Positions 599 through 30,815 of a stretch of 64,000 nucleotides of DNA are shown one piece after another. The notes below the pieces were generated by a model that was given only the letters and a program-made list of their open reading frames with translations, was not told the DNA's origin and did not search any database. Source of the DNA: an uncultured Chloroflexia bacterium (GTDB lineage: Bacteria > Chloroflexota > Anaerolineae > Anaerolineales > UBA11858); contig CAWHCC010000008.1 of the NCBI GenBank assembly GCA_963827805.1, positions 26,921-90,920 of the forward strand. The letters run 5' to 3'. Each line of letters opens with the position of its first letter. Position 1 is the first letter of the stretch. A program made the position numbers and the translations under genes.

Positions 599-617
599 AC
601 CAAATTGGAGCATTACA

Positions 618-2009: not shown

Positions 2010-2042
2010 TGAAATTTTCGGAGCACTTTATCCGGCATTCAC

Positions 2043-3011: not shown

Positions 3012-3026
3012 TATTGCCTCCGCACA

Positions 3027-5183
3027 TTACGCATCGATAGCTTCCAACAATCCAGCCAACTCCCAGGCATACATGCCACCTTGCAACACGCGCAAATTTT
3101 CAAAACCTTGTTTGGTTAACGCAGATGTGGCACGGGTGGACCGCCTTCCCCCGCGGCAAACAATTACCACCGGGCAATCTTTAGGCACCTGGGAGATATC
3201 GCCAAAGAGTTTGAGCAGTGGGATCAATTTTGCTTGTGAAATATGCCCTCTTCGAAATTCCCGCATTTCCCGGACGTCTATAACCAGGGGAGCATTCGGG
3301 CCGTGGAGTTCATTCCACAGCACCAAAGGTTCCACAGTTTTTATTTCATCTTGAGGCACTCCTAACGGGAGGGTGATTTCTTTCTCCCTTGGATGTCTTT
3401 CCGGCCTGGGGATGTTCTGACATTCCAGAAAGACGCGTGCATCACATTCATATACGCAGATTGCAGGATCCAACACCCGATGGAAAAGGTATTCGATCGC
3501 AGAATTATATGAAAGAAAATGGTCTTCACCCAAAAAGTCATAAAATTCTGTCGACTTGAGGCGATCCATGATGGGGTCTTGGGTACGCATCATAAAAACA
3601 TCACCGCCCCGTTCACGGTAGGCGCGCACAATTGATTCGAGCTCATGTACGCCGCTGATATCCACCTGGTCAACACTAAACATGCGCAGCAGCAAGAACC
3701 GCTGGCTGGGATTAGCTTCCATATGATTGCGGATGGCTTCATCAACGTGAGGGACAGCACCAAAATATAAGTCCCCAAGGATATCCAAAATTCCCATCTG
3801 TGGGCAGGGATCACGATCTGGTTGATGCGTAAAATGGCGAAAACCCTCACTTGGCAAAACAGAAACTACACGTGGTATGCTGGTTCGCAAGACATAAACA
3901 ACGAATGATAGCAGGATACCCACCAACACAGCAAATTGCAGCGGCAGGAATAAAGTGCTGACAAATGAACCCACCATGATAATAGCATCACCACGAGTGC
4001 CTCGGAGAATGCGCTTCATCTCAGCTTTATCGATCATGCCATAAGCGGTGACCACCAGTACACCGGCGAGCGCTGCCCGCGGGACAAAAGCAGCATAGGG
4101 GGCCATCACGAACATCGCAATCAAAACGAAGATCCCTGAGAACACTCCAGCCAAAGGGCTGCGAGCGTCCGCATCAAAATTGATCGCCGAACGTGTAAAA
4201 GAACCGGAAACACTGTATCCCGAGAAGAAACCACTAAACAAATTGGCCAAGCCTTGACCAATGAACTCTTGGTTGCTATCCAAGCGCTGGCGGGTCTGGC
4301 TGGAAATTGAACGCGAAATGGCAATGGATTCGACCAGCCCTATAGCACCGACAGCCAGCGCGCCCGCCGATAGATCTACAATCAGACCAAGGTTCAATAA
4401 GGGTAATTTGGCGAGAGGCGGAAGGTTACGAGGGATCTCTCCAAGAATTTTGACGCCTTGTTCATCCAAACCAGCTAAGCCAACAACCGCTGCAGAAAGC
4501 ACCATGATTATCAGGGCACCCGGCCATTTGGGCAAAAACCGCTTTTGTAAAATCAGCAGCAGCATTGCACCAACCCCGATGGATAAGCTGATCAAATGGG
4601 TTTCAGGAAAATATACAACTAGCTCCTGGATCGTAGCAATCAGGCTTGAAGCACTTGGAAATTCCAGACGCATCAGATGGCGAAGTTGGTTTACGGCAAT
4701 CAAGATACCTGCACCAGCCGTGTACCCAATAATGACAGAATCGGATACAAAATTTACCAGTATTCCCAAACGAGAAACACCCAAAGCGGCTTGGAAGACA
4801 CCCACCATCACAGCCATTAGCCCAGCAGCAGCCAAATACTCTGGCGTACCCACAGCTGCAATCGGCAGCAGGGTAGCCAGTACCAACAAAGATGTTGAAT
4901 TGGTCGGTCCGGTGTGAAGTTGACGCGATGATCCCCATAATGCTCCGACAATGGCGGCTACAATAGCAGCGTATAATCCCACCGCTGGAGGAAGTTCAGC
5001 AATCAGAGCAAACGCGATGGCCTGAGGCAGCAGCACAACAGCCACTGTCAGACCCGCAATTAAGTCGGAGCGCAAATTGCCGCGTTCGTACGTTTTGAAG
5101 ATGGATATGGGACGGGCGAAAAAAGAAATAGTTTCCGTGCCAACGCGATTGATGATCGTCGTCGGGATCGACGTAGAGGACAT
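3027..5183 (-). CDS. SulP-family anion (sulfate) permease fused to a STAS domain and a C-terminal rhodanese domain
   Basis: 718 aa. Multi-TM SulP core, then a STAS region, then a rhodanese fold carrying the active-site loop CRGGRRS (catalytic Cys present). Confidence 0.8.
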   Translation of the reverse strand: MSSTSIPTTIINRVGTETISFFARPISIFKTYERGNLRSDLIAGLTVAVVLLPQAIAFALIAELPPAVGLYAAIVAAIVGALWGSSRQLHTGPTNSTSLLVLATLLPIAAVGTPEYLAAAGLMAVMVGVFQAALGVSRLGILVNFVSDSVIIGYTAGAGILIAVNQLRHLMRLEFPSASSLIATIQELVVYFPETHLISLSIGVGAMLLLILQKRFLPKWPGALIIMVLSAAVVGLAGLDEQGVKILGEIPRNLPPLAKLPLLNLGLIVDLSAGALAVGAIGLVESIAISRSISSQTRQRLDSNQEFIGQGLANLFSGFFSGYSVSGSFTRSAINFDADARSPLAGVFSGIFVLIAMFVMAPYAAFVPRAALAGVLVVTAYGMIDKAEMKRILRGTRGDAIIMVGSFVSTLFLPLQFAVLVGILLSFVVYVLRTSIPRVVSVLPSEGFRHFTHQPDRDPCPQMGILDILGDLYFGAVPHVDEAIRNHMEANPSQRFLLLRMFSVDQVDISGVHELESIVRAYRERGGDVFMMRTQDPIMDRLKSTEFYDFLGEDHFLSYNSAIEYLFHRVLDPAICVYECDARVFLECQNIPRPERHPREKEITLPLGVPQDEIKTVEPLVLWNELHGPNAPLVIDVREMREFRRGHISQAKLIPLLKLFGDISQVPKDCPVVIVCRGGRRSTRATSALTKQGFENLRVLQGGMYAWELAGLLEAIDA

Positions 5184-8944: not shown

Positions 8945-10168
8945 TCAGGGTGCCGGGGGCGTAATGGTAGCCTGCAAAGTTCCCCCGTAAATATGCCATT
9001 GTTGAGCAGTTAATACAAAACCCTCGGAGAAAAGATCGAGATCGGTTGTAGTGAGTAAAGCCTGTTCAGCCTGAGCTAACCGGTCTAGCAAATCGACCCG
9101 CCGCCGGGGATCGAGTTCAGCTAATACTTCGTCGAGCAGCAGCACCGGCCAATGGCCGGTTTTTTCTTTCATCCAGACTACTTCTGCCATTTTGACAGCC
9201 AGCATCGCGGTGCGAATTTGCCCCCGCGAGCCATAGGTGCCCAAATCGATGCCGTTTGCCAAAAAGCGCAGCTCATCGCGATGCGGTCCAACGGTGGTTA
9301 AACCACGGGCAATTTCTTCGGATCGTTTCTCGTTGAGGGTCGTCTGAAATCCTGCGACGATCTCAGCCTTTGAGATGCCAGTACGATCTATGGGAGCATC
9401 AAGCGGGAGAGTAAATTGCGCAGGCTGCTGGGGGAAAGGATCATAAGCGGGATGATAGGCTAAGCGCAACACTTCTTCCCCGCGGGTTAGTTCACTGTGA
9501 GTGATGACTGCAAGGTCTTCAATTTCGTGGAGCGCATGAATTCGCGCTTCGATTAGGACAGCCCCACTGAGCGTAATTTTCTCATCCCAAAAAGCCAGTT
9601 GAGATGAATCTCCCCCGCGTTCCCCCAACAGTTTCAAGAGCGCATTCCGTTGACTAATGGCTTTACTGTACGTTGAGAGGGCCGTAGCATAATTGGGGAT
9701 CGTCTGTGACAGCAGCAAATCAAGATAGCGGCGGCGGGCCGATGGGGAACCTTCGATTACTTGCAACATCTGCGGTAAGAAAAGCACGGCGTTGAAATGC
9801 CCAATGACATCACTAACTTTACGTTTGCTGCCATCCAGAAAAATTTCTTTGCGCACGCGAGAGCCTCCATTGTGTCCGTTATTTTCCTGGATGATGCGAA
9901 CCTCTAAACGATGCGATTTTCCCCCGCGCACGTAATCTGCTACGATGCGCCCCACCGCCAGGGGATTTTTCCCTGCAATAAAGTTAATTAGTTGACGGTC
10001 ACTACCTGCATGAAAAGATGTAAAAGCTGCCAGATAATAAATTGCTTCTAGCAAGCTAGTTTTCCCTTGGGCGTTATCGCCTAATAATAAGGTTGCCCCA
10101 CGCGGCACATCCACATCCAAACGAGAGAAGTTGCGAAAATCTGTCAGAGAGAGATGGGTAATGTGCAT
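8945..10168 (-). CDS. recF: DNA replication/repair protein RecF
   Basis: Walker A GDNAQGKTSLLEAI and the RecF signature region, 407 aa. Confidence 0.9.
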   Translation of the reverse strand: MHITHLSLTDFRNFSRLDVDVPRGATLLLGDNAQGKTSLLEAIYYLAAFTSFHAGSDRQLINFIAGKNPLAVGRIVADYVRGGKSHRLEVRIIQENNGHNGGSRVRKEIFLDGSKRKVSDVIGHFNAVLFLPQMLQVIEGSPSARRRYLDLLLSQTIPNYATALSTYSKAISQRNALLKLLGERGGDSSQLAFWDEKITLSGAVLIEARIHALHEIEDLAVITHSELTRGEEVLRLAYHPAYDPFPQQPAQFTLPLDAPIDRTGISKAEIVAGFQTTLNEKRSEEIARGLTTVGPHRDELRFLANGIDLGTYGSRGQIRTAMLAVKMAEVVWMKEKTGHWPVLLLDEVLAELDPRRRVDLLDRLAQAEQALLTTTDLDLFSEGFVLTAQQWHIYGGTLQATITPPAP

Positions 10169-10858: not shown

Positions 10859-12535
10859 CTAAAAACCTAAATCCTGATTCCGCCACGGGAACCGTTGGTC
10901 TTCAGTCTCTTCGTGATAGATCTCGAGCCAAGTTGCCATGCGTTCGTGTTCTTGCTCCATTCGATCTTGCTCCTGTTGGGCAACCAACTCTTCCATGCGA
11001 CGGGAAATATCTTGGTGGACAACCGATGGATCATGAACTCCGTCAAAACTAAACGTTTCATCGCCAACATTGATATAGACATTTCCCACATTAAGAATCA
11101 ACCCGATAATGCTCGGCACTTCATGCCCTAAACTCTGGATATTCTTGATGGGGGCCGAGCGGAAAGATTCTTTTCCGAAAGGTTTCTTATCCCGGTCGAT
11201 AATCAGATCGCGAGTTACCCGATATAGATCGTTGCGCCAGTCTTCATATTCGTACAGCCACCAAAAGAAAAACCCAACCGTTGCCAAAGCTGTAATCCAC
11301 CAAATCCATTTTCCCCCATTGATTTCATTAATAACCAAATAAGCTGATAGAAAAGAAATAGCAATTAATGACAATATAAAAACGATATTTGGGGCCAACG
11401 AATTTTTGAGGAAGATGGACCAATGTTTACGATAAGTGATGGTATCGCCATCAACAATACGCGTTTTGAAGATTGCAAATCGTCCTGGCTTCTTCGCTGC
11501 TACTGGGGGGATAGAGCTTGGCTCTTCGAAGGCAGCCTCCTCACCCTCAATTTCCAACCGATCACGGATCGTTTGCCGGATCGCGGTTAACTGGTCACGT
11601 TGTGAGCGACGCCGTGAGCGTAAAATAAACCCTTGGATGAGTTCTTTCATCCGCTCAGGATGATGCACATCTGACATGTGTAATTCGCTGTTAAAGGTTC
11701 GAACGATCAGATCACCAACTTGAATGGCACGATGGAAGAAATTCCCGGTTTGAATATTCATAGATTGGATTGTCCGGAGGGGAGTTTCTTGACGGCTGGT
11801 GCCTCGGAACAGGATTCGTTCTCTCCAAACCACGCGAACATTGGTGACGATAAAATAGTCGTTTCGCCATTCTGCCCAGGCCCAAAGGATGGCCAGAAAC
11901 CCTACCAAAGCTAAGCTGCCTCCGACAATCCAAGCGAAAGCCAGCAACCCAGCCATCTGATTGAAGAGCAGCGAAACTGCTGTCAGAATGGTCAGGTCAA
12001 AAGAAACCAACACTGCCATCAAAAGGATTTCACCTACCAAACGGATGGGATGCCGGCGAGTAATCAGATTGATATATTCGCCCTCGCCAAGCCAATCGAT
12101 ATGTAAGCGGCTAGAAATTTCATGGGTGCGGGAGAAAGCAGCCAGGTAGGGTTCCACCTGGGGATATTTTTCACGCAGCCAATCGAAATCATTTGAGTTA
12201 AGGTAATACAAGTCAACAGCATCAAAAGCAGAAACCGTTGCAGAACGCTCCCGGTTGAAATAGAGGGCATCTTCTCCAACTGTATCACCCACATCAAAAA
12301 TGGCGAGTTCGATTTCGGAACCTATTTCATCATCAAAACGGCTGATGCGTAATTTCCCCCGCGCAACAAAATATATATTATCACCCTCATCACCCTCTCT
12401 GAAAATCACTTCACCTATTTTGTATTGAACATATTTCAAACGGCCAGCAATAATGCCAAGGTCATCATCGCTCAATTCATTGAAGATCTGAACTTGTTGG
12501 AGGAAATTAACTCGTTTTTCGATTTCGGGTAACAT
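10859..12535 (-). CDS. Membrane protein with an N-terminal cyclic-nucleotide-binding domain and two bacterial PH (YdbS/YdbT-like) domains
   Basis: A cNMP-binding fold at the N-terminus, TM helices, then two bPH_2-like segments (DYFIVTNVRVVWRER… and NDLYRVTRDLIIDRDKK). Confidence 0.65.
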   Translation of the reverse strand: MLPEIEKRVNFLQQVQIFNELSDDDLGIIAGRLKYVQYKIGEVIFREGDEGDNIYFVARGKLRISRFDDEIGSEIELAIFDVGDTVGEDALYFNRERSATVSAFDAVDLYYLNSNDFDWLREKYPQVEPYLAAFSRTHEISSRLHIDWLGEGEYINLITRRHPIRLVGEILLMAVLVSFDLTILTAVSLLFNQMAGLLAFAWIVGGSLALVGFLAILWAWAEWRNDYFIVTNVRVVWRERILFRGTSRQETPLRTIQSMNIQTGNFFHRAIQVGDLIVRTFNSELHMSDVHHPERMKELIQGFILRSRRRSQRDQLTAIRQTIRDRLEIEGEEAAFEEPSSIPPVAAKKPGRFAIFKTRIVDGDTITYRKHWSIFLKNSLAPNIVFILSLIAISFLSAYLVINEINGGKWIWWITALATVGFFFWWLYEYEDWRNDLYRVTRDLIIDRDKKPFGKESFRSAPIKNIQSLGHEVPSIIGLILNVGNVYINVGDETFSFDGVHDPSVVHQDISRRMEELVAQQEQDRMEQEHERMATWLEIYHEETEDQRFPWRNQDLGF

Positions 12536-14258: not shown

Positions 14259-14870
14259 TTAGGAGTTTACAGTCCTCAACCTTCGGGCCAAGAAGATCAC
14301 TACCACCAAAGCGGCAGCTAACGCAATCATCCCTGGGATCCCAAAATCGTCCGCGAAGCCAGTATCCGGCAAGCCCGTAGCTGCGGGTGTAGCCGTACCA
14401 CCTCCAGCTTGCTGGGTTAGCAATGCCGAAACCGTGGCGGTACGCGGATCTGTAGTGGCTTGCACAGCCCCAGCCGGCGTATCCGTGGGCGCTAACACAG
14501 GGGTAGGACTCGATGTCGCGGTAATCGGAGCGGGTGATGATGTTCCCGTGGGGGTATGCGTCCAAGCTTGCGCTTGAGCCGTCATCTCTGCGGCCATGGC
14601 AACTTCGGTATTTTGGATATTTATTTGGGCAGCCTGTGTGCTCTGCGCATCACGCCGCTGGGGCATGAACACCATTGCATACACAGCCATGCAGACCAGC
14701 GCCAAAATTAGAACAGCACCTAAAATACCTGCAACCAGCCAGAACGTTCGGTTGTCACTCCCCCCCTCTGAGGCATCATCATCTTCAAAGTCATCGAATT
14801 CATCTACGGGTTCATCATCTTCAAATTCGAAATCACTAAAATCATCCATATTATTTCCTTTCTCCTCCAA
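14259..14870 (-). CDS. LPXTG-motif (LPDTG) cell-wall-sorting protein with an acidic cytoplasmic N-terminus and a signal-anchor TM
   Basis: The C-terminus reads LPDTG, then a hydrophobic helix, then RRLR, a classic sortase signal. The middle is Thr/Pro/Ala-rich. The N-terminus, MEEKGNNMDDFSDFEFEDDE…, precedes a TM helix. Confidence 0.6.
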   Translation of the reverse strand: MEEKGNNMDDFSDFEFEDDEPVDEFDDFEDDDASEGGSDNRTFWLVAGILGAVLILALVCMAVYAMVFMPQRRDAQSTQAAQINIQNTEVAMAAEMTAQAQAWTHTPTGTSSPAPITATSSPTPVLAPTDTPAGAVQATTDPRTATVSALLTQQAGGGTATPAATGLPDTGFADDFGIPGMIALAAALVVVIFLARRLRTVNS

Positions 14871-14917: not shown

Positions 14918-15973
14918 TTACGTCAAAACTTCAAGATTTGCCAGGGGAACAATCGCAGTTTCTCCATTTTCGAGATTGATTTTGGCTGATTTAGCCCGCA
15001 ATCCACTGGGAAGTTCCGCTGGTTTACCGAGAATATACTCTATCGTACCAATTGAATTTTGATCTTTCGCACGCATCAGGCGCACTTTTTGGCCTGCGGC
15101 ATAGTCTTCGGTTTCCACCGGAAGGCTGGGATCGTTAGAAGACGATAACGGGATGGCTATCTCTGGACGAGTCCCCAAAAAATGATCAAAAGGAACCGCG
15201 TTGATAGAAACCTCGCGATTCTGGTTGGTGGTTAGCAAATTATAGCTTGCTGAATCTAATGGTCGGAAACCAAAACCGCGCAGCACAACAATAGGGTACG
15301 GCATTTTTTCAGCCAGAGGAACCAAAGCGGCTGACATGCTGGAGAGGATAAGACCCTTTATCGGAATATCCACCGCGTTGCGGAGTGCTTTTGGCTGGTC
15401 ACAATAGCCACTTAATATGACTGTTCCTCGCAGGCTGACATCTAATTGATCGCTGCTCAATTTTCCATCTGGCGCTTCAAGCATGTTCTGCATCAATCCA
15501 AAATCCATATGTCCATTTCCCCAGACACCTTGAATTAACGCCCCTACAGTTTCGATTACCGCGCCGCGATCAGATATTAAGTCAGTGACAACACCAGCCA
15601 TGCCAGATCGAAGTTCATGCGGTAAAGTATCAACTTCAAGTAGAATTTTCCCGTTACGAATAATGGAAATTCTGCCAGAAACCGGCGCTCGTAATACTCG
15701 GCGGGTGATGCCGACAGGACCAGCAATCAAATCACCTTCAGCAACTTCATCTCCAGCCTCACGCTGAATAAAAGATTGTGCTTCTTTAGCAGAAACACCC
15801 AAAGCGCGCGGGACATTGAGCAACAAATGTTCTGGAGCTAAAGTCGCTTCAGCGATGATATCACGGGGCGCAACTTTTTGCCCCTGACGAACAAGCACCC
15901 TCCCCGATACGGGAAGCGCTCGTTCTCGCCGGATGGTGGTCAGGGGCAACACATGAACAATGGAGGCCAACAT
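14918..15973 (-). CDS. Hypothetical protein (possible beta-rich SAF/barrel-like fold)
   Basis: 351-aa ORF in an operon with the flanking genes. No confident family assignment. Confidence 0.45.
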   Translation of the reverse strand: MLASIVHVLPLTTIRRERALPVSGRVLVRQGQKVAPRDIIAEATLAPEHLLLNVPRALGVSAKEAQSFIQREAGDEVAEGDLIAGPVGITRRVLRAPVSGRISIIRNGKILLEVDTLPHELRSGMAGVVTDLISDRGAVIETVGALIQGVWGNGHMDFGLMQNMLEAPDGKLSSDQLDVSLRGTVILSGYCDQPKALRNAVDIPIKGLILSSMSAALVPLAEKMPYPIVVLRGFGFRPLDSASYNLLTTNQNREVSINAVPFDHFLGTRPEIAIPLSSSNDPSLPVETEDYAAGQKVRLMRAKDQNSIGTIEYILGKPAELPSGLRAKSAKINLENGETAIVPLANLEVLT

Positions 15974-16104
15974 AACTTTTGTATCCTATCTATCTGGATT
16001 TTATTTTCAACTGCTCTCCGGCATTCGCGAATTCGATCTCATACCGAAATTTTTTAAACATACCGAAATTTATAATCAACAGTGCAAGATAAATGCCAAA
16101 AGGA

Positions 16105-17856
16105 TTAACTACCAAACACCCACTGCCATTTAGCAAACATTTCCCGTCGCCGGCTGTCATCATTGTGAAGTACTATTGGACGGCCACGAGCATCAATTAC
16201 CACGCCATGCACTCCACCGACCATGCGCAAGCGTCCACCTCGGCCGGGACCTCCCATACCAATATCAAATCTATGAAGGGGTTGTAAGCGCAGGTTGACC
16301 GTTTGCCCCAGAGGCACTGGCAATATTTCTAGGGAGCCATATTTCACTTCCATGCGGGTTTCACTCCCATCCGCATAGGTAATCTGCAAACGTAAGATTG
16401 ATGTACCTGGGCGAGCTTCACCAACAGGTGAAATAACTGCTCCTAAGTTTAACATATTGGCTTCAAGCACTTGAACAACCAAAGTAGGGTTGATATCTGC
16501 GGCAGCACCTAAAGCAGCCGTTAGATTGCCCAGATCTAAAAGTATGGTCGTGATTCCGGTTGGTTGAAGACCATCTAACAAAGTTAACAAGCTGCTCCCA
16601 TGAGAAGGAGCATGTGTGAAAACCCTCCCGCGTGCGAGAATTGGTTCAAAACCAGGCAACAATCCAGGATTAGGGGTTGCTACTCTTCCAGGAAATCCAG
16701 TAGCCGTTTGCTTCGTGCTAAGTCGAATAACTTCACGTACAATAGCCTGTTCGATGGCCTGTTCGATGGCTGTAGCAGGAATAGCAGATGGATATGCTGC
16801 TTTTTGATAGATATAATCTCGAATATCATTATCGCTTAATTCTTCGGTAAGCCAGCGCGAAATATTTTTCAAACGGGTGCGCTTGAGAATGCCTGGCAGG
16901 CCAAGCCCTAAACCAAGATCTGGGTAAACGCCCGAGGTCAGCTGACCAGCAAAACCTGCGGCCACGGTAGCTGCAGAGGCGCCAATATCAATTCCTAAAA
17001 CCCCTTTTTCTGGGTCATACAGGCGGCTGAGAAAACGGATCATACGACCGAAGGCTGATGCAGTTGGCATCAAATTTCCCCCGGTCCACCCATCAATTTC
17101 TTGAACACCGAGAATTTTCTGTCTGCGTATCTGGCGATGAATTTGAGCCAGCTTCATCTGGGCAGCATCCAACTGCTCAATTTCCAATGTTGGGCGAATA
17201 TTAGGCGCAAAATGCAATGTTGCAGCACCATCCAACAAAGATCGAATATCTCGACGAACTGCCTTGTTCCCGGCAAATAACACTTGAGGACGCAAACTTT
17301 CTGGCAATAAACGACAGGCCAATCCTACTGTCTCCAACAGGTTCTTTATGGATCGATCTGCTCCATCCTCGGTGCCACCAGCAGCAATAATCAAATCAGG
17401 GCGTGTTCGCAAAATCAAATCAATTCTGGCATCTTGCTTTCGGCGGTCATTCAAACTCAAAGTTTCAACGACTTCAGCATAAGTAGTCGCAGCCAAGCGT
17501 CGAGCGCTTTCTAAAGAAACATTTTCTAATAAACCTACAGCCACCACTTTGAGTGGCGGACCTACAGAAATTGTAGCAGCCAAAGAATCAACCCCAGAGC
17601 CATCCGAAGCACTCGGCATAATGATGCTTTCATCGTCTCGCAATAGTAAACGCCCTGAGATTTCTTGAAGCTGATCCAAGGCTCTTCGAACACCTTCACC
17701 GACATCTCGAAATGGTGCGCCTGCGGTTGTTACTGCGGAACCGGCTGCCAGGAAACGATAGCGGCCATCTACCACATCGAACAAAAGGGCACGAGTCGTA
17801 GTCGTCCCAATATCGATTGAAAGAAGAGAATCTGCGGAGACAAGTGATGTGGTCAT
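16105..17856 (-). CDS. ASKHA-superfamily (actin/Hsp70/sugar-kinase fold) ATPase-like protein
   Basis: The N-terminal phosphate-1 motif SIDIGTTTTRALLFD resembles PilM-, GlmL- and hydantoinase-type nucleotide-binding motifs. 583 aa. Confidence 0.5.
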   Translation of the reverse strand: MTTSLVSADSLLSIDIGTTTTRALLFDVVDGRYRFLAAGSAVTTAGAPFRDVGEGVRRALDQLQEISGRLLLRDDESIIMPSASDGSGVDSLAATISVGPPLKVVAVGLLENVSLESARRLAATTYAEVVETLSLNDRRKQDARIDLILRTRPDLIIAAGGTEDGADRSIKNLLETVGLACRLLPESLRPQVLFAGNKAVRRDIRSLLDGAATLHFAPNIRPTLEIEQLDAAQMKLAQIHRQIRRQKILGVQEIDGWTGGNLMPTASAFGRMIRFLSRLYDPEKGVLGIDIGASAATVAAGFAGQLTSGVYPDLGLGLGLPGILKRTRLKNISRWLTEELSDNDIRDYIYQKAAYPSAIPATAIEQAIEQAIVREVIRLSTKQTATGFPGRVATPNPGLLPGFEPILARGRVFTHAPSHGSSLLTLLDGLQPTGITTILLDLGNLTAALGAAADINPTLVVQVLEANMLNLGAVISPVGEARPGTSILRLQITYADGSETRMEVKYGSLEILPVPLGQTVNLRLQPLHRFDIGMGGPGRGGRLRMVGGVHGVVIDARGRPIVLHNDDSRRREMFAKWQWVFGS

Positions 17857-17860
17857 AATG

Positions 17861-20713
17861 CTACGAGATGAAATTTAAAATCAGATTCCATAAATAAGAA
17901 ACTCGCTCGATAAGGGCGGTAATCGCGGCTAAATAAACACCAGAGAACAAGGCTCCAAAAGTAATGGCAATGAAAACCTGACCAACTCCGCCAATAGTTT
18001 CGAGCCACTGAGGCCGCTGGGAAGATTGATCTTCAACACTTTTGCGGCGAATTCCGAAATGGAAATAAAGTAAAGTTGTCAGGGTACCTGCCAGGATTAT
18101 GAATGCATTTAGCGGGTTGCTATTATCTTCGAATACACTCATAGAAGCTGAGGCTTGTGGGTAAATCGTTCCCAAAACGGCACCACCAATGGCAGCCGCA
18201 GCACCCACACCTACTAAATATGCCACCGCAATATTCCCAAGTTTGTTCAAACGCGGCGATATTTTGGTCAGCATAAGCGCACCTAAAATCAAGAAGAGAA
18301 TTGCGAAAAGTTTCTCTCCTCGATTACCATCTACAAAAGGAAAAACCATTTGTGGCAGAATAACATTTTGGATAACAACAATGGTTACATACCCAGCGGT
18401 GACACCGATGAAAAGATGTGCTGCAATCCGGAAGAGAACGTTGTCACCCACTATATAGCTAAATATAAATATAGTTAGCACAAACCCAAGGATTGCGCCG
18501 ATAACGTCTAACATGCTCAAATCGAAAGCACTCATGCAGATTTCTCCTTCCGATTCCTTTCGTCGAGCAAGCAGTGTAGATATTACGGTAATGCCGCCAC
18601 CAATAAGGATTGCACTGACAGCTACAATTAGAACTATATTGAAGGCATCCCAATATGATCGAGCGATATTCGGCCGGGTCATAACTTCGTAGGCGGCACC
18701 CCCGGTCAAGCCACTCACGAAACCATCAATCTGTTTTTGTTGATGCGCAAAATACGGGCGCACCATGGGTTCTGCTTGTGCACTTACCAGTACAACAAGT
18801 GGAACAGCCTCTAATTCTGGATTTACCTGTTCAACCCATGCGCGGGCGGTATTAGGATTATCTGTTATCAATACCACCAGTGAGAAGTCAGATACTTTGT
18901 CGATATTTTTGAGGGGTGCTGTCTCCCAGGCTCGCATACCATCTAAGGTTTCCGGGAAAACCCAGTTGGGGTTGCGAGCAAATGCGCCTAAACCTGTCAC
19001 TCCGCCTGGGACGTACCCCAGGTTTACATACTGATTACCACTGATATAACCGTGACTCCCCTGAATATTATTGATGAAATGTTCTGCCAATAGCGGCCCC
19101 GTCGGCGATGTTGATACCAACACTAGTTTGGTACCTTTCAGCATCATATGATCCACGACAGCAGCAGAGGCAGCCTCCATTTCACCTGCCAACCCAGGTT
19201 CGTAATCAAATGCTAATAATGCAGTATCCTCTGGGGTTAACGCATTCACCAAATTCCTGGTTTCTTCTACACCCATGGGAATATTCCCGGGGGATGGCAT
19301 AGTTGCGATTTCGCTGCCGGCCAAAACTGCCACGAACGCGATCACTACCAAAATCGCGCTCAAGATCATTCGAAAAACCCGTTGACTCGAGATTAATGGC
19401 GGTGTTGGCAATGGCTGAGATTGTTTTTCGGTTTCCAACAAATCTAACAGCACATTAGCATGCGCTTGTTGCGCTTCGGTGATCTGCAGCTTGCTAGAAT
19501 AGACCGGCGGTTTTTTCAAACGCGAGATTTCTGGCTCGGCTGCCAGCACACCGTACAGACCAGCCAATGGCCCAGAATTCTCCATTGGACCGCGTTTTTC
19601 TGAACCAGCTGCATCCGTGGGAGATGATTCAACTGGCCGCATTGCAGCCAACCATCCAGGTAATTCCGCAGGTTCCAAACCATCGACTGGACCTGTTTTT
19701 TCTTGAGTTTGGTCTAAATCAGATAAGGGTTCATCCGCTATCCAATCTGCCAACTGATCCATTTCATAGAGATCATCGACAAACTCAGCATCGCTAGCAG
19801 AAGGTGTGATCTCAACAGGCTCATCTTCAATTGCATCCGTCGCCACTGATATGGGCACATCAGCATCGCGCAACCAGTCTGGGACTGCTCGGGATTCGTC
19901 TAAAGTAGTAGGCGGTATTTCTGGCTCACTATCAGGAAGATTTTCAACCCCCTCGATTTCAGCCAGCCAATCCGGTAAATCCTCTTCAATTACAGGAGAA
20001 GCTTCAATTTCTTCGTCCCCAATATCAGCAAGCCAGGCGGGGATTTCCTCTTGATCTGCTAAAGGGGATGCTGCTTCCTTAGATAATGGGGCTTCAACGC
20101 CTTCAACATCTGACAGCCAGTCAGGAATACCTTCTTCATTTGCGGGTGGAACCACACTTTCAATTTCATCACCAGTCGCCAACCACTCGGGGGTATCCCC
20201 CCTGTCGTCACCAGCTTTGGCCAAACCAGCAGTCAGCCCAATCTTAGCAGCCATGCTGCCAATATCATCTTCTTTTTCATCATCCGCCTGCAAGTCCTGT
20301 AAATTCTCTTCCAAGACAGGGGGCGCCGCAGCTTCGACACTTGCATCGATATCATCTCTCAACCAAGCCGGGAGTTCATCGCCCGCCGGCAAAGGGGAGT
20401 CTGCTATTTGAGACTGTACTTCCTCTTCGTTTGGCGTTTCTTCTTGCTCATCAAAACTCGTCAGCCAAGCCGGTAAATCATCATCCTGATCAGGGGACGA
20501 GGGGAAACTCTCTGCCTCAAGAGCACTATCTTCAGTGCGCCAGTCCGGACTCGCCGCATCCGCTTCTGACATCTGAACCGTGGGTTCTGAAGTTCCTTCT
20601 TCTTGTTCATCAAATCCAGCCAACCACTCAGGGATATCATCTTCGGCAGCAACGGCGGCAGCATCTTCGGCTATATCTTCACCTGCAAGCCATTTAGGAA
20701 GGTCATCATCCAT
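17861..20713 (-). CDS. Large membrane protein: an acidic disordered N-terminal half with 11 D-[LI]-P-x-W-L repeats, a TM, a roughly 270-aa extracytoplasmic domain and a C-terminal 6-7 TM bundle
   Basis: 950 aa. Repeats are DLPKWL, DIPEWL, DLPAWL, ELPAWL, DTPEWL, GIPDWL, EIPAWL, DLPDWL, AVPDWL, LADWIA and ELPGWL, each separated by D/E-rich linkers. Confidence 0.6.
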   Translation of the reverse strand: MDDDLPKWLAGEDIAEDAAAVAAEDDIPEWLAGFDEQEEGTSEPTVQMSEADAASPDWRTEDSALEAESFPSSPDQDDDLPAWLTSFDEQEETPNEEEVQSQIADSPLPAGDELPAWLRDDIDASVEAAAPPVLEENLQDLQADDEKEDDIGSMAAKIGLTAGLAKAGDDRGDTPEWLATGDEIESVVPPANEEGIPDWLSDVEGVEAPLSKEAASPLADQEEIPAWLADIGDEEIEASPVIEEDLPDWLAEIEGVENLPDSEPEIPPTTLDESRAVPDWLRDADVPISVATDAIEDEPVEITPSASDAEFVDDLYEMDQLADWIADEPLSDLDQTQEKTGPVDGLEPAELPGWLAAMRPVESSPTDAAGSEKRGPMENSGPLAGLYGVLAAEPEISRLKKPPVYSSKLQITEAQQAHANVLLDLLETEKQSQPLPTPPLISSQRVFRMILSAILVVIAFVAVLAGSEIATMPSPGNIPMGVEETRNLVNALTPEDTALLAFDYEPGLAGEMEAASAAVVDHMMLKGTKLVLVSTSPTGPLLAEHFINNIQGSHGYISGNQYVNLGYVPGGVTGLGAFARNPNWVFPETLDGMRAWETAPLKNIDKVSDFSLVVLITDNPNTARAWVEQVNPELEAVPLVVLVSAQAEPMVRPYFAHQQKQIDGFVSGLTGGAAYEVMTRPNIARSYWDAFNIVLIVAVSAILIGGGITVISTLLARRKESEGEICMSAFDLSMLDVIGAILGFVLTIFIFSYIVGDNVLFRIAAHLFIGVTAGYVTIVVIQNVILPQMVFPFVDGNRGEKLFAILFLILGALMLTKISPRLNKLGNIAVAYLVGVGAAAAIGGAVLGTIYPQASASMSVFEDNSNPLNAFIILAGTLTTLLYFHFGIRRKSVEDQSSQRPQWLETIGGVGQVFIAITFGALFSGVYLAAITALIERVSYLWNLILNFIS

Positions 20714-21790
20714 CTCATCAGAGTCGAGTCAGAGATTCTGGTTGAAGATCAATCTCCCCAGTTGGCGGGTCTAAATCTGGAACTTCGCTCTCTACCGCAG
20801 CAGCGCTGACCACATCAGCCCCATCATCATCGAGCATGCCATAAAGAGTACCCGTGTCCATATCAAATGGCTTTTGAGGTCTGGGTAAATCTTCTGTTTG
20901 AGCTTCTTCTTGAGCCCTCAAATCAGCCAGCCAATCAGGAGGGTCGGAATCTTCAGCGCTCAAAACTGGAGGTTCGCCTTCCGCAGATGGGACATCATCG
21001 GCGCCAAGTCCTGATAACCAATCTGGCAAATCACTTTCTTCAGAGGGTGAAATGCTTTCTGCTTCTTCTGCACCAGCAGAGAGCCAGTCGGGTAAATCCG
21101 CTTCTTCCGCCCCGAGCGCTGGACTTGCTTCATCGGATTGAAGGTAATCTTCGATGGGGATCGTCTCCTGGCCAATATAGCCTGGAGTTTCTTCATGTGA
21201 AGGTGTTTCTTCGTCCCCTCCTTCGGAGAGCCAACCGGGCAAAACATCGCCTGTTCCAGAAGGAATATCGGTCTCATCCCCGCGGTCTGAAGTTAACCAA
21301 TCGGGCAAATCTCCCTCTTCTGATGTGAAAGGTGACTCAGGGGCTGCTGATGACAAATCGCCTAATGGCGCATCATCTTCCTGGGCATCGCTGCCAGAAA
21401 GCCAATCTGGCAAATCGCTGGTTTCATCGATGGGTTTGGGGCTTTCAGCTTCTTCTTCAACTGAGAGCCAAGAGGGGAAATCAGAATCGCTGGATTCTTG
21501 GGCTGTTCCCAAGGATGGCGTGGTTCTTTCCGTTTCCATATCTTCAAGCCAGTCGGGGATACCGTTATTATTGAAGTCCATACGAGAGGCAGCCTCACGT
21601 TCGGAATCTGGGTCGGCTGTTGCTTGAGGAAGAGGAGATTTTTCAGGTTCAGAATCACCGCCAAGCCGGGTCATCCAGTCATCGGTTTCATCTTCAAAGG
21701 GAGCATCGTCATCTGTCTCGCTAAAATCCGCATCAGAATCAAAATCCAGCCAATCCGGCAACTCTGAGCCAGAACTCTGTGTCCTCCGGG
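19393..21790 (-). repeat. Coding tandem array of about 20 short 'acidic linker + D-[LI]-P-x-W-L' motifs spanning two adjacent ORFs
   Basis: Visible in the translations of ORFs 17861..20713 and 20718..21761. Spacing is about 25-40 aa. Confidence 0.6.
20718..21761 (-). CDS. Highly acidic disordered protein with 9 D-[LI]-P-x-W-L repeats; likely the continuation of the upstream zinc-ribbon ORF
   Basis: 347 aa. Repeats are PDWL, IPDWL, FPSWL, DLPDWL (x3), VLPGWL and PPDWL. The ORF begins at a TTG, and the frame upstream reads …SGSELPDWL, which continues the motif. Confidence 0.55.
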   Translation of the reverse strand: MPDWLDFDSDADFSETDDDAPFEDETDDWMTRLGGDSEPEKSPLPQATADPDSEREAASRMDFNNNGIPDWLEDMETERTTPSLGTAQESSDSDFPSWLSVEEEAESPKPIDETSDLPDWLSGSDAQEDDAPLGDLSSAAPESPFTSEEGDLPDWLTSDRGDETDIPSGTGDVLPGWLSEGGDEETPSHEETPGYIGQETIPIEDYLQSDEASPALGAEEADLPDWLSAGAEEAESISPSEESDLPDWLSGLGADDVPSAEGEPPVLSAEDSDPPDWLADLRAQEEAQTEDLPRPQKPFDMDTGTLYGMLDDDGADVVSAAAVESEVPDLDPPTGEIDLQPESLTRL

Positions 21791-21969
21791 ATTACCGGAT
21801 CATCTGAGGGGGTAGAAGCAATGAGAGGTTTTAGACGCGCTTGACAAAACTGGCAAATATCCAGGTTGTTGGGGTTGGGCTTTCCACACATGGGGCAACG
21901 TATTTCAGCCATTGATTTATCCACTGTAAGGGCGATCAGTGCCCATGAGAATCCGAATTCCGGTGGCAA
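21739..21969 (-). CDS. Zinc-ribbon protein (CPMCG…CQFC); probably the N-terminus of the repeat protein, separated from it by a 1-nt indel
   Basis: MAEIRCPMCGKPNPNNLDICQFCQARL. Deleting one T near 21775 fuses …PEDTE to SGSELPDWLDFD…. Confidence 0.45.
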   Translation of the reverse strand: MPPEFGFSWALIALTVDKSMAEIRCPMCGKPNPNNLDICQFCQARLKPLIASTPSDDPVIPEDTEFWLRVAGLAGF

Positions 21970-22582
21970 TAATGCCCAATGCTACACCAAGTAAGACACC
22001 TCGAGAACCACCAACGGTCGGAACTTGCAGGATCCAATCTCGGATTTCAGTCGCCAGACCAAAGCTGGAGGCGAACGCAGGGATTGCGCCGATCAGCAAT
22101 ATCAGAACGACGATGACGAAGATCGCCGACATGAAATTCAGTTTGCGAGCAAAAAGGCGGGTGGCTGCATAAGTGAGGCTGATCGCGATAATAGCCATAA
22201 GACTAGATTCAACAGGCAATTGAATATTCTCAAATATCCACCGCGTATAGCGCAATCCCTGGGCTCCCTGCCAATAAGTCATCACAAGATCATAAGCGCC
22301 AACCAAAAGTGTAAATACAAGGGCAGTCACTGTAATCAGGCTGTAGGCCGCTCCATCTCCCCGGCAAATCTTTTTCACATGCACAGATGTTAAATTGAAT
22401 ACGCCAACTATTACTGCCACGCCCGCAACAATGATTGTCCCTTGAAGAAAATAGTCACGCAAAATGCCAAGGATGGTAGTTCCACCGGATGAGTTTGTAC
22501 CAAAGAAATAACCGAGCAGGACAATCAAGCCCACGCTAATGGCAATTGCTACAGATATTGGGGCTCGAAACTTAAGTTTCAT
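21917..22582 (-). CDS. Integral membrane protein (about 5 TM), unknown function
   Basis: 221 aa, hydrophobic. Overlaps the downstream neighbour by 4 nt (translational coupling). Confidence 0.5.
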   Translation of the reverse strand: MKLKFRAPISVAIAISVGLIVLLGYFFGTNSSGGTTILGILRDYFLQGTIIVAGVAVIVGVFNLTSVHVKKICRGDGAAYSLITVTALVFTLLVGAYDLVMTYWQGAQGLRYTRWIFENIQLPVESSLMAIIAISLTYAATRLFARKLNFMSAIFVIVVLILLIGAIPAFASSFGLATEIRDWILQVPTVGGSRGVLLGVALGIIATGIRILMGTDRPYSG

Positions 22583-23361
22583 AGAAGGCCCCCTAACATA
22601 TCAACGAGGATGGTATCCAGGTCGAGTGCCTTAGCAATCACACCAAGGATGATTATTGCGACGATTGCCCAACGAATAATATCTTGGGCGCGTAGGCTGG
22701 CATCGTGTGTGGGTCCAGCATTGAGATAAGCACCCCCTGCATATAATTCTTCACCAATCAGGGGTTCATGAGCCGTGGCATAAAGCACAGCCTGAGCAGG
22801 AAGACTATCTGTACCGGCGAGGGTCATATTATCACTGCGCTCACCGGCATCCGTAATCAGGGCAACCTCGCTGCCAAAATGTCCCGCCAAAATATTTGCT
22901 CCGGTCTTATCGTCGCTCGCGAGTGACATGGTACCGGCTGCATAAGAGAAAGGTGTTAGACCTGTTACTCTACCGGAGGTGGCATCAAATTGTTCACCCA
23001 AACCGATCCGCTGGTAAGTGCCGCGCAATGTATCTTGTGCCAAAACTCCAAGAGTTCCCTCACCAGCTGTGGCGATGGGCGGATTGTCACCCGTGGATGT
23101 AGAGCCTGCCATCCGTTCGAGTATGCTCAACCCGATAAAAGCTGTGGCACTTTCTGGACCATTAACCCCACCTTGCCCAATACTGATATGCAAGCGCGAT
23201 CCCGCTTCCACAGCAAGACCAATCGCCCGGCGTAACTTGGTAAATGCTGAAATCCTGCGTAAATTCAACTCTGGGCGACTGCGGCCCGAAGCTACAAAAA
23301 TTACGATCAAACCAAAAAATATGAGGATAAAAACAAAACCAAGCAGGCCGGATAGAGTCAC
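22579..23361 (-). CDS. Bitopic membrane protein with a large extracytoplasmic Gly/Ala/Thr-rich domain, unknown function
   Basis: 260 aa. TM helices at the N- and C-termini. Confidence 0.5.
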   Translation of the reverse strand: MTLSGLLGFVFILIFFGLIVIFVASGRSRPELNLRRISAFTKLRRAIGLAVEAGSRLHISIGQGGVNGPESATAFIGLSILERMAGSTSTGDNPPIATAGEGTLGVLAQDTLRGTYQRIGLGEQFDATSGRVTGLTPFSYAAGTMSLASDDKTGANILAGHFGSEVALITDAGERSDNMTLAGTDSLPAQAVLYATAHEPLIGEELYAGGAYLNAGPTHDASLRAQDIIRWAIVAIIILGVIAKALDLDTILVDMLGGLL

Positions 23362-23382: not shown

Positions 23383-23661
23383 CTATGCTCCTTCAGATCG
23401 TTCTGGTTGCTGTAAAACAGAGATAAAAGCCTGTAATTTATTTTGATCTTCTAGCAGATCTGCCAGGGCATCCAGTTGACCTTCAGGTAAAAACTGGTTA
23501 AAGAAGGGTTGACCGACATATACAAACTGAGCACCAAATATATTCAGCGGTCCCAAGGCATCCAAGAAAGTTGCAGTGAGATCTTTCACTCCCCAACAAT
23601 TCAAGGTTTTTGCCCAAGTTTGCCAGATATGTGGGTTTTGTTCCACGTGTGTCCGCTCCAA
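23383..23661 (-). CDS. Small cytoplasmic hypothetical protein; first gene of the operon
   Basis: 92 aa, 21 nt upstream of the next ORF. A 295-bp non-coding leader lies upstream. Confidence 0.4.
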   Translation of the reverse strand: MERTHVEQNPHIWQTWAKTLNCWGVKDLTATFLDALGPLNIFGAQFVYVGQPFFNQFLPEGQLDALADLLEDQNKLQAFISVLQQPERSEGA

Positions 23662-30065: not shown

Positions 30066-30815
30066 ATGGAAATTTTAGGCATCGATATTGGGGGCAGCGG
30101 CATTAAAGGTGCACCAGTCAATATCAAGAAGGGGAAACTTCTCACACCCCGGTACCGCATCCCTACCCCTCAGCCATCTAAACCCAAGGCTGTTGCCGAG
30201 GTTGTCGGAGAAGTTGCGAAGCACTTCAACTGGAAAGGCCCAATTGGTGCGGGCTTTCCAGCACCAATCCAGCATGGGATTGCGCGCACGGCTGCCAATG
30301 TCCACGATAGTTGGATCAATACAAATGCCGCGAAGCTCCTCACCAAAGCCACTGGGTGCCCTGTTACTGTGGTCAACGATGCCGATGCGGCAGGAATGGC
30401 TGAAATGTCCTTCGGTGCTGGAAAAGGGCGAGATGGCGTTGTGCTGCTGGTGACCATTGGAACCGGGCTGGGTACTTCAGTTTTTATTGATGGCAACTTG
30501 CTGCCCAACACAGAATTTGGTCATATCGAAATCGATTGCGAAGATGCCGATTAAACGCATCCGATGCAGCCCGCAAAGAAAATGATCTGTCCTGGAAAAA
30601 ATGGGCTCAACAGCTAGACACTTACTTGCTGCGGCTTGAAGCCCTCATCTGGCCAGATTTTAATTATTTTGGGTGGGGGAGTGAGTAAAAAACACGAAAA
30701 ATTTATCCCGCGTTTGACGGTAAAGGCGGAGGTAGTACCAGCCGAAACACTCAACGAAGCAGGCATTATCGGAGCCGCATTGGCCGCTGGGAAAAAACGA
30801 ACTGCAAAAAGATAG
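30066..30815 (+). pseudogene. ppgK: ROK-family polyphosphate/ATP glucokinase with two 1-nt frameshifts (about 30552 and 30690)
   Basis: The N-terminal 171 aa ([15 protein letters not shown]…[11 protein letters not shown]) stop at 30554. The conserved C-terminus (…[34 protein letters not shown] | [20 protein letters not shown]…[10 protein letters not shown]) continues in two other frames. Confidence 0.7.

Follow-up and report, generated by a model that had tools for sequence, protein, structure and literature searches.

The window, the 64-kb stretch of DNA analysed here, carries on its minus strand two adjacent acidic open reading frames in which a short tryptophan-containing motif recurs about 20 times. 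The locus raises the question of whether these copies belong to one protein or two, whether they build a folded repeat or a disordered chain, and what they may bind.

Motif copies and composition

The earlier note described about 20 copies of an acidic D-[LI]-P-x-W-L motif across positions 17861-21969, in two ORFs. A regular-expression count on the minus strand of 19634..21773 gave 21 occurrences of [DE]-[LIV]-P-x-W-L, the variants PDWR and ADWI included, against the 0.1-0.2 expected from shuffled sequences. Both ORFs are present in that span, but the motif-bearing part is confined to 19634..21773. The first part of the array (20733..21773, minus strand; 9 copies by the ORF list, regular expression and tblastn) is read as the 347-aa ORF 20718..21761, which contains nine P-x-W-L cores. 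The second part (19634..20713, minus strand; 12 copies including PDWR and ADWI) belongs to ORF 17861..20713, a minus-strand frame of 950 aa whose first 440 residues hold ten P-x-W-L cores plus the two variants. In 5000 composition-preserving shuffles, the two ORFs gave on average 0.17 and 0.12 copies, with maxima of 3 and 2. The consensus repeat unit is [DE]-[LIV]-P-[DE]-W-L-[SA]-x-[LM]. Aspartate and glutamate make up 27-29% of the residues of both acidic parts, and the computed pI is 4.05.

A six-frame scan of the window placed all motif matches between 19600 and 21800 within the two coding frames of the 347-aa and 950-aa ORFs, which speaks against a wrong-frame artefact, and across the whole 64 kb no acid-flanked copy was found outside the array. 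The motif region of neither ORF matched a family among the Pfam and NCBIfam profiles, and the earlier note likewise had not been able to assign the motif to a described domain family; array homologues gave only stray sub-threshold matches, such as PSP and DUF7843. A literature search found no mention of the motif or of DUF6754, a family encoded nearby. The motif and the eight-gene operon that contains it are undescribed.

A single gene interrupted by three insertions

The two ORFs had been taken for two adjacent proteins. Comparison with homologous sequences indicates instead that ORFs 17861..20713 and 20718..21761, together with a zinc-ribbon ORF at 21823..21912 in a third frame, are pieces of one gene. 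Searches with intact relatives (tblastn) located three frame changes in the window gene, each of which is a 1-nt insertion relative to those relatives in DNA alignments. All three lie on the minus strand, and were defined by alignment and reconstruction. At the first junction (21772..21775; alignment with L001, L002 and L003) an extra T cuts the zinc ribbon off from the array. At the second (20727..20731) the +1 insertion GAATCTCTG[A]CTCGAC makes the first of the two ORFs appear to end and the second to start anew. At the third (18540..18544) the +1 insertion GGAGA[A]ATCTGCATGAG abolishes the stop codon and fuses the frame to the next gene. Removal of the three bases in silico yields an ORF of 1125 aa with a C-terminal end like that of the relatives. 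Ribbon, array and membrane domain share a single ORF in the intact relatives P0001, P0003 and P0004, and in 67 of 72 related loci.

The five broken loci, four from MFD MAGs and one on the ERZ25039603 contig of L001, all come from assemblies with contig_N-style names, and further genes of the window are also frameshifted. The most likely source of the three +1 insertions is indel errors in a long-read assembly. Eight neighbouring genes contain no insertion, against three in the 3.4 kb of the array gene. Because this number exceeds the prediction from the overall indel rate of the window, the array gene may have undergone a genuine recent disruption in the source organism.

Domain organization of the reconstructed protein

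From its N-terminus, the reconstructed 1125-aa protein has a probable four-cysteine zinc ribbon and a 742-aa tail with the 21 motifs, and then a Rossmann-like outer domain held between two membrane helices. The true N-terminus is encoded by MAEIRCPMCGKPNPNNLDICQFCQARLKPL (21823..21912, minus strand), a zinc-ribbon segment of 30 codons that is out of frame with the array here; residues 1-46 of P0004 match 21912-21775 by tblastn, in another frame than the array. The segment has the cysteine pattern CPMCG-x10-CQFC. It scores below the cutoffs of the zinc-ribbon Pfam models (PF13240, PF13248, PF12773 and similar), and the ribbon of the homologue P0112 passes PF13240 with 27.3 bits against a cutoff of 25. 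In a homologue model generated with AlphaFold2, the zinc ribbon has pLDDT values of 81-90.

The tail carries a net charge of -196. Two conserved elements precede the first membrane helix. The last motif copy, ELPGWLAAMRP (19634..19666, minus strand), is nearly invariant: in the family alignment, conservation reaches 90% or more at each of the residues L, P, W, L, A, M, R and P, and the AlphaFold2 model of P0004 predicts a short helix with a pLDDT of 68. A conserved juxtamembrane cytoplasmic segment (19427..19573, minus strand; alignment and model) includes GPLAGL, in which G, P, L and G are invariant, and after it a KKPPxYSxKL helix that corresponds to residues 683-699 of the P0004 model.

Transmembrane helix 1 (19304..19378, minus strand) was assigned by a hydropathy scan and a helix in the model. 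The Rossmann-like α/β domain (18644..19303, minus strand) lies between the two membrane helices, and helix 2 (18566..18643, minus strand; sequence, hydropathy and model) leads into RRKESEGE(SA), the natural C-terminus. We infer from the positive-inside rule and the absence of a signal peptide that the Rossmann-like domain is extracytoplasmic and that the ribbon and the tail are cytoplasmic.

Predicted disorder of the array

In the AlphaFold2 model of P0004, computed from a 60-sequence alignment, residues 32-680 have pLDDT values below 50 and adopt no secondary structure, in a chain whose zinc ribbon and C-terminal domain are modelled confidently. The only helical turns in the array are at DWL and PAWL positions, in this model and in a chimera with the ASKHA protein of the operon described below. 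The distance between motifs varies widely (17-35 aa and above) and has no fixed period; the first 120 homologues carry 4 to 24 copies, and one protein has 50. Across the 120 homologues, E/D, L/I/V, P, D, W, L, S/A and L/M are conserved at fixed offsets. Identity between orthologues is 60-75% in the motif cores, as opposed to 26-50% in the spacers, which are unconserved among relatives in both length and sequence. No repeat was found in the array at the DNA level, and the copies differ in their codons.

A folded tandem-repeat domain is not supported, given the lack of a fixed period, of regular secondary structure and of a DNA repeat. The low pLDDT, the variable spacing and copy number, and the conservation of the cores alone support a multivalent short-motif scaffold in a disordered acidic region rather than a folded repeat, in line with the scaffold reading of the earlier note.

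It is very improbable that the array is a tandem repeat whose fold AlphaFold2 missed, or a decaying pseudogene or wrong-frame artefact without function. Novel repeat folds can escape AlphaFold2 and the window gene does have three frameshifts; against this, there is no fixed period and the spacers are unconserved, the motifs are confined to coding frames and intact on either side of every frameshift, the 67 relatives are uninterrupted, and the motif is kept in more than 1000 homologues.

The operon and its products

Eight tightly packed genes make up the operon, with the array gene in fourth place. Their order is fixed in Anaerolineales: it was the same in each of the 83 related loci, as far as the contigs extend. 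Neighbouring genes have overlapping stop and start codons, or codons at most 5 nt apart. Relatives are encoded in 324 species-representative genomes; among the best 80 of the 324, nearly all are labelled Chloroflexota or Anaerolineales. All genes are on the minus strand. The first (23383..23661) encodes a small protein of about 90 aa. It is followed by a DUF6754 protein of 260 aa (22579..23361; profile E = 3e-32) with membrane helices at both ends by hydropathy, and by a 221-aa polytopic membrane protein (21917..22582) directly upstream of the array gene. Downstream is a 224-aa polytopic membrane protein (17861..18535), 90% identical to the L003 protein. In the window it forms the C-terminal end of the 950-aa ORF, and relatives carry it as a gene of its own, with a 4-nt overlap (ATGA).

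The sixth gene (16105..17856) encodes a 583-aa ATPase of the ASKHA fold, assigned by profile and model to the MutL/GlmL family PF13941 (E = 5e-63, 213.9 bits, model positions 2-448 of 450, above the gathering score), with about 115 extra C-terminal residues that form a β domain. Its relatives are 57-88% identical, constant in length and named "glutamate mutase L" at NCBI. A role as a GlmL accessory protein of glutamate mutase was rejected, as the protein scores 98.5 bits against an NCBIfam equivalog cutoff of 475. The operon protein resembles GlmL/MutL in matching the full Pfam model, but where a GlmL gene would be expected between glutamate mutase subunit genes, the ASKHA gene is placed among membrane-protein genes, flanked by those of the 224-aa membrane protein and the 351-aa protein in 83 of 83 loci. 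No glutamate mutase subunit was found among the Pfam-annotated genes of L001-L003.

The seventh gene (14918..15973) encodes a 351-aa soluble protein with weak similarity to barrel-sandwich hybrids at its N-terminus only. The product of the last gene (14259..14870), of about 200 aa, has an acidic DDFxDF N-terminus, a membrane helix, a T/P-rich region and a C-terminal sortase-type signal, composed of LP[DSE]TG, a hydrophobic stretch and RRLR. Comparison of the operon proteins with the PADLOC models of anti-phage defence returned only one marginal match, on a low-complexity region.

Proposed function and candidate partners

We consider it about an even chance (probability near 0.5) that the protein is a membrane-tethered disordered tail whose roughly 20 docking peptides gather a cytoplasmic partner at a membrane complex. 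Each motif would be a short docking peptide, in which the proline caps a single helical turn that displays W, L and, four residues on, L/M to a hydrophobic groove. The acidic flanks would keep the chain in an extended state and guide it to a basic surface. With some 20 sites on one tethered chain, many copies of the partner could be captured and concentrated, and copy number would tune capacity. Precedents in design include the eukaryotic endocytic adaptors Eps15 and epsin, whose DPF and DPW repeats bind the appendages of AP-2 and probably act through avidity. They share with the present array many acidic-aromatic motifs of 3-6 residues, irregular spacing and a long disordered region; they differ in being eukaryotic, with D-P-F or D-P-W cores and known receptors, whereas the array here is bacterial, has an L-P-D-W-L core and is part of a membrane-anchored chain.

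The co-encoded ASKHA ATPase was one candidate for the partner. Five motifs appended to it in a single-chain AlphaFold2 chimera, in one test, stayed at pLDDT 25-38 and did not dock, which speaks against this assignment, and in the P0004 model no motif docked on the protein's own ribbon or outer domain. MamJ and MamK of magnetotactic bacteria offer a comparable pairing: the adaptor MamJ is acidic, repetitive and for the most part disordered, and its gene accompanies that of an actin-like (ASKHA) ATPase. The MamJ repeats are long (tens of residues), and there is no sequence similarity to the array protein. MamK forms true actin-like filaments, whereas the ATPase here belongs to the MutL/GlmL-hydantoinase branch and is not predicted to dock the motif.

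The conserved C-terminal peptide of FtsZ has the consensus D-[IV]-P-x-[FY]-L-[RK], and forms a helical turn on binding partners that include the actin-like FtsA. It has the same succession of an acidic residue, an aliphatic residue, proline, any residue, an aromatic residue and leucine; five of the six positions match this consensus in residue class. It is conceivable, though improbable, that the motif mimics this peptide and that the array binds FtsA, SepF, ZipA-like anchors or another cytoskeletal ATPase, which would tie the operon to the division or septation of filaments. Foldseek matches of the operon ATPase do include the peptide-binding actin-like proteins FtsA and PilM, but with TM-scores of at most 0.46, no better than those of Hsp70, and the chimera showed no docking. 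The FtsZ peptide moreover occurs once, at the very C-terminus, with basic residues after it, whereas the motif has Trp in place of Phe or Tyr, acidic flanks, and about 20 copies internal to a non-FtsZ protein that bears a zinc ribbon and membrane helices. Neither the window nor loci L001-L084 contain an ftsZ or ftsA gene.

The architecture provides a further point in favour of FtsZ mimicry. CdpC, the membrane anchor of haloarchaeal FtsZ1, combines a CPxCG-type zinc ribbon with a very long disordered linker, and thereby shares ribbon, linker and membrane attachment with the array protein (doi 10.64898/2026.07.16.738847). CdpC is archaeal, has two ribbons and uses an amphipathic helix instead of membrane helices; it has no homology to the array protein, and its linker is not known to contain a repeated motif.

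A search with an HMM of the motif unit matched 969 cluster representatives among 1.84 billion. Of the 144 top matches that were new relative to earlier searches, 55 lack the membrane domain, and at least 34 of these 55 contain TPR repeats. They define a second array family, encoded away from the operon and adjoining ndk, in which the motif array is combined with TPR and other repeats in a soluble protein without membrane anchor.

This family bears on two readings that dispense with a dedicated receptor. The tail could be a polyelectrolyte brush or a sticker-and-spacer chain, whose W-L stickers weakly self-associate or join the TPR-array proteins into a membrane-attached condensate or exclusion zone. 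We regard this as unlikely, though it is the foremost alternative. It would accommodate the extreme charge of -196, the predicted disorder, the free variation of copy number from 4 to 50, the undocked chimera, and the pairing of the array with TPR and other repeats in the second family. A core fixed at six or more positions, among them Pro, Asp and the L/M at +4 from Trp, nevertheless exceeds what generic stickers need, and the near-invariance of the last copy and the strong like-charge repulsion opposing self-association point the same way.

Alternatively, the array might have no protein partner and bind either divalent cations or the membrane interface, W and L then inserting into the bilayer. 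The very high Asp and Glu content and the preference of Trp and Leu for membrane interfaces are in keeping with this, yet it has little probability: known Ca-binding repeat families in Pfam and NCBIfam are unmatched, anionic bacterial membranes would repel the acidic flanks, the conserved Pro, Asp and +4 L/M are left unexplained, and the TPR-array family is soluble.

For the docking scaffold favoured here, the TPR domain is the best receptor lead, by domain co-occurrence alone: TPR domains are fused to the array in the sole other family that has it. The ASKHA ATPase of the operon is less strong as a candidate. The TPR groove of kinesin light chain recognises Trp within an acidic stretch, which resembles the TPR-fused second family. 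Kinesin light chain is eukaryotic and its motif is L/M-x-W-D/E.

The motif array and its enrichment

Both open reading frames described in the earlier note are present on the minus strand, namely a 950-aa ORF (17861..20713) and a 347-aa ORF (20718..21761). A pattern count for P-x-W-[LI] gave 9 copies in the 347-aa ORF and 10 copies within the first 440 aa of the 950-aa ORF, accompanied by the variants PDWR and ADWI, for a total of 21 copies over both ORFs when variants are included. Shuffled controls that kept the composition contained a mean of 0.17 and 0.12 copies per ORF, with a maximum of 3. The array of about 20 copies noticed previously is thus genuine and lies well past chance expectation. 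A six-frame scan placed every match at 19600–21800 in the two coding frames, which speaks against a wrong-frame artefact, and found no acid-flanked copy outside the array in the 64-kb window. A typical copy reads EEDLPDWLAEIEG, and the invariant one PAELPGWLAAMRPVE. The composition is 27–29% Asp plus Glu, with a calculated pI of 4.05.

No Pfam or NCBIfam model matched either ORF, in agreement with the earlier statement that the motif has no assignable domain family, and a literature search found no paper mentioning the motif or DUF6754, which is encoded in the same operon. On these searches, motif, protein family and operon alike are undescribed. Over 120 homologues, the consensus is E/D, E/D, [LIV], P, D, W, L, [SA], x, [LM], often followed by R or G. 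Copy number varies from 4 to 24 among these homologues and reaches 50 in one 2219-aa member, and the spacing is broad (mostly 17–35 aa) and lacks a preferred period. As DNA, the copies share 60–80% identity over 20–35 nt and differ in codon use, and no tandem repeat was found in the array. Recent DNA duplication is rejected as its origin on these grounds, and conservation of the motif therefore operates at the protein level.

A single gene with three insertions

The reading of the array as two adjacent proteins is not borne out. A putative four-cysteine zinc ribbon, MAEIRCPMCGKPNPNNLDICQFCQARLKPL, is encoded in another frame just upstream of the 347-aa ORF (21912..21823, minus strand). The closest relatives (P0001, P0003 and P0004; best local alignments 60–67% identical) are each one protein of 996–1212 aa, in which the ribbon is followed by a single long array and then by a conserved domain between two membrane helices, before the ending ...RKESEGESA. 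A tblastn alignment of P0004 to the window changes frame three times: residues 1–46 match in frame 1 (21912–21775), residues 47–429 in frame 2 (21773–20733), and the remainder after residue 429 in frame 3 (20710–18542). Frame 3 continues in the window into the 224-aa product of the next gene; in the relatives, the start of that gene overlaps the array-gene stop as ATGA, in a different frame. In DNA alignments, the window has one surplus base per junction, near 21773, 20729 and 18542; without these bases it reads as a 1125-aa ORF that ends in the native C-terminus. The motif copies are undamaged on either side of every junction.

The ribbon and the conserved domain share one frame in 67 of the 72 related loci with sufficient upstream sequence. 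The five broken loci (L001, which is the closest relative, L062, L064, L073 and L082) all come from assemblies with contig_N-style names, four of them MFD MAGs and L001 from ERZ25039603, which we take to be long-read assemblies. Eight genes neighbouring the array gene are intact with respect to their L001 counterparts, so three insertions in 3.4 kb represent an excess. Further frameshifted genes occur in the window. The ROK-family gene at 30066–30758 (plus strand), 75% identical to its L001 counterpart, contains a garbled 35-codon stretch with two stops after which the frame is regained, indicating two compensating indels. At 49445–50645 (plus strand), overlapping ORFs of 229 and 186 aa resemble two parts of a single frameshifted gene of about 400 aa, the first frame decaying into stops beyond residue 229. 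Because most relatives are intact, the broken ones carry contig_N names and other genes in the window are frameshifted, the three insertions are probably assembly errors, and a genuine recent disruption of the gene is the less likely account. Programmed frameshifting is implausible, given three separate +1 insertions and the absence of such a feature from the 67 intact relatives. The L001 assembly has a 1-nt insertion within the zinc-ribbon codons and a recF split into products of 108 and 320 aa (10001–10100 and 22151–23150), which point to indel errors there too. Indels in long-read assemblies can thus make one gene pass for several proteins.

Disorder, charge and topology of the array tail

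The intact homologue P0004 was modelled with AlphaFold2 using a 60-sequence alignment. The zinc ribbon (pLDDT 81–90) and the C-terminal domain (above 90) are predicted with confidence. The array region is predicted to be disordered, with pLDDT below 50 over residues 32–680 and no secondary structure apart from short helices, located at DDWMTRL and the last motif. This last copy, ELPGWLAAMRP, and the subsequent GPLAGL segment are nearly invariant. The low pLDDT, the lack of a period and the variable copy number agree with the earlier proposal of a short-motif scaffold, which was supported by every test run; that the array is instead a folded repeat, a pseudogene or an artefact is extremely improbable.

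The reconstructed tail carries a net charge of about −196. A chain of this kind might act without any receptor, as a polyelectrolyte brush or a sticker-and-spacer chain, which we regard as unlikely, or might bind cations or the membrane interface, for which the odds are very low. Identity to orthologues is 60–75% in the motif cores versus 26–50% in the spacers, a contrast that is somewhat inflated because the alignment favours matching Trp residues. The absence of a signal peptide, the N-terminal zinc ribbon, and the K/R clusters before the first membrane helix and after the second suggest that the tail is cytoplasmic and that the Rossmann-like domain lies outside. The array is the long, disordered, polyanionic tail of one membrane-anchored protein and bears one conserved short motif in many copies.

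A second family with the same motif

Of 1.84 billion cluster representatives, a 30-column motif-unit HMM (alignment A4) matched 969 at an E-value of 1e-3, 364 at 1e-10 and 24 at 1e-30. Among the top matches that were new relative to earlier searches (n = 144), the membrane domain is present in 89 and absent in 55, and at least 34 of these 55 contain TPR repeats. The long members P0254, P0320 and P0390, of about 1700 aa, begin with a TPR domain followed by an E-[VIM]-P-D-W-L-K array, bear AWLESLAAKHGA-type repeats and a C-terminal TPR domain, and have no membrane helix; an HHH_3 domain is found in P0254 and P0390 and not in P0320. Genes for TPR-array proteins of this length lie far from the operon and immediately upstream of ndk (L084, 8001–13169; L085, 3623–8902; L086, 7001–12025). 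In two of these three loci, the gene adjoins a radical-SAM gene, DUF2344 and a PrsW protease gene. No further gene with two or more motifs was found in 1.4 Mb of operon flanks. As judged from these searches, the motif is a lineage-specific element of two unrelated architectures, which argues for a common receptor or a common physical role.

A proposed docking scaffold and its analogues

Our main reading is that the array is a multivalent docking scaffold for a protein partner, with a probability of about one half; for any particular partner the probability is much lower. Each motif would constitute a docking peptide in which the proline caps one helical turn that displays the Trp, the Leu and the Leu or Met at position +4. 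AlphaFold2 places helices of three to five residues precisely at DWL and PAWL. The acidic flanks would hold the chain extended and guide it to a basic surface, and twenty sites per tether would catch many copies of the partner near the membrane complex.

Docking-motif arrays in disordered regions are a familiar organising principle of eukaryotic cells, and few clear bacterial cases are known. In its working, the motif array would be closest to the arrays of DPF and DPW motifs in eukaryotic endocytic adaptors. In architecture or logic it resembles MamJ, an acidic repetitive adaptor that is co-encoded with the actin-like MamK, and the W-acidic motifs bound by kinesin light-chain TPR domains. A comparable architecture is that of CdpC, a membrane-attached haloarchaeal FtsZ1 anchor with a zinc ribbon and a long disordered linker (doi 10.64898/2026.07.16.738847). 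The array protein belongs to none of these systems. That the array mimics the FtsZ C-terminal peptide in multivalent form, or is tied to another cytoskeletal protein, is improbable. The motif presumably resembles that peptide; no ftsZ was found in the window or in loci L001–L084.

The operon and candidate partners

When one genome per species was scanned with a pattern, relatives of the membrane domain were found encoded in 324 genomes. Nearly all of the best 80 are labelled Chloroflexota, Anaerolineales or Anaerolineae; one 2.4-kb contig bears the label Pseudomonadota, and one locus the label Ca. Aquidulcis (Chloroflexota, class Limnocylindria). Gene order is constant in 83 of 83 loci, as far as each contig extends: a protein of about 90 aa, DUF6754 (260 aa), a polytopic membrane protein (221 aa), the ribbon/array protein, a second polytopic membrane protein (224 aa), the ASKHA ATPase of the MutL/GlmL family (583 aa), a soluble protein of 351 aa, and a protein of roughly 200 aa. 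The stop and start codons of genes 2 to 6 overlap or are at most 5 nt apart, which suggests co-translation and a complex. PADLOC defence models matched no operon protein, and a defence system was rejected as a reading of the operon.

The ASKHA protein gives a full-length match to PF13941 (E = 5e-63) and scores far under the GlmL equivalog cutoff; by these profile scores it is a member of PF13941 and not a GlmL. Its full-length relatives (581–594 aa) are 57–88% identical, with the nucleotide-binding glycine and aspartate motifs conserved, and the predicted structure has an additional C-terminal beta domain. Fold matches include the hydantoinase/acetone carboxylase branch, FtsA, PilM and Hsp70, all with low TM-scores and none of them a close solved relative. 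With a pI of 8.9, it is the only basic soluble protein of the operon. Docking was assessed with a single-chain AlphaFold2 chimera of ASKHA and a 140-aa segment with five motifs, using an alignment of 64 ASKHA homologues. The motifs gained no confidence (pLDDT 25–38 for the motif segment and above 90 for ASKHA), and the earlier suggestion of ASKHA as the partner is, therefore, not supported. ASKHA is kept as a candidate despite the negative chimera, alongside the TPR domains, proposed from domain co-occurrence, the cytoplasmic domain of DUF6754, and the 351-aa protein, whose profile gave nothing significant against PDB sequences.

The operon may tentatively be read as an unrecognised membrane machine of Anaerolineales, the core component of which would have an acidic motif tail of 20 to 50 valences that draws a specific cytoplasmic receptor, a TPR protein or an ASKHA-type ATPase, to the membrane and organises it there. 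The tail would then be a bacterial counterpart of eukaryotic multivalent adaptor scaffolds, by which, for example, envelope or septal structures of these filamentous bacteria might be built or positioned. Anaerolineales are plentiful in sediments, soils and wastewater sludge. A sharply defined motif of six to nine residues, in 4–50 copies on a tail with a net charge of about −200, is here anchored to a predicted membrane complex of eight genes with an order fixed in 83 loci and relatives in 324 species-representative genomes; the motif offers a direct experimental handle on the partner and, through it, on the role of the operon.

The protein of gene 8 (14259–14870, minus strand; homologues in L001–L083) has a conserved, acidic DDFDFDD tip at its cytoplasmic N-terminus. 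A membrane helix comes next, then T/P-rich sequence, and at the C-terminus LP[DSE]TG precedes hydrophobic residues and RRLR, which together form a sortase-type sorting signal. The protein would thus be a substrate of the sortase type that also has an N-terminal signal-anchor, an unusual pairing. A 131-nt AT-rich gap (15974–16104) separates the ASKHA gene from that of the 351-aa protein; it is the sole sizeable intergenic gap among genes 2 to 7, a place where an internal promoter or a regulatory element might lie. In L002, two large LysM/peptidase M23 genes that are absent from the window flank the operon immediately upstream, in the opposite orientation (408–3531). About 2 kb downstream of the operon, beyond a phosphoglucomutase gene on the opposite strand, the window encodes a membrane protein of 558 aa that carries cNMP-binding and bacterial PH domains (10859–12535, minus strand), the gene for which was found at 44 of the 83 loci.
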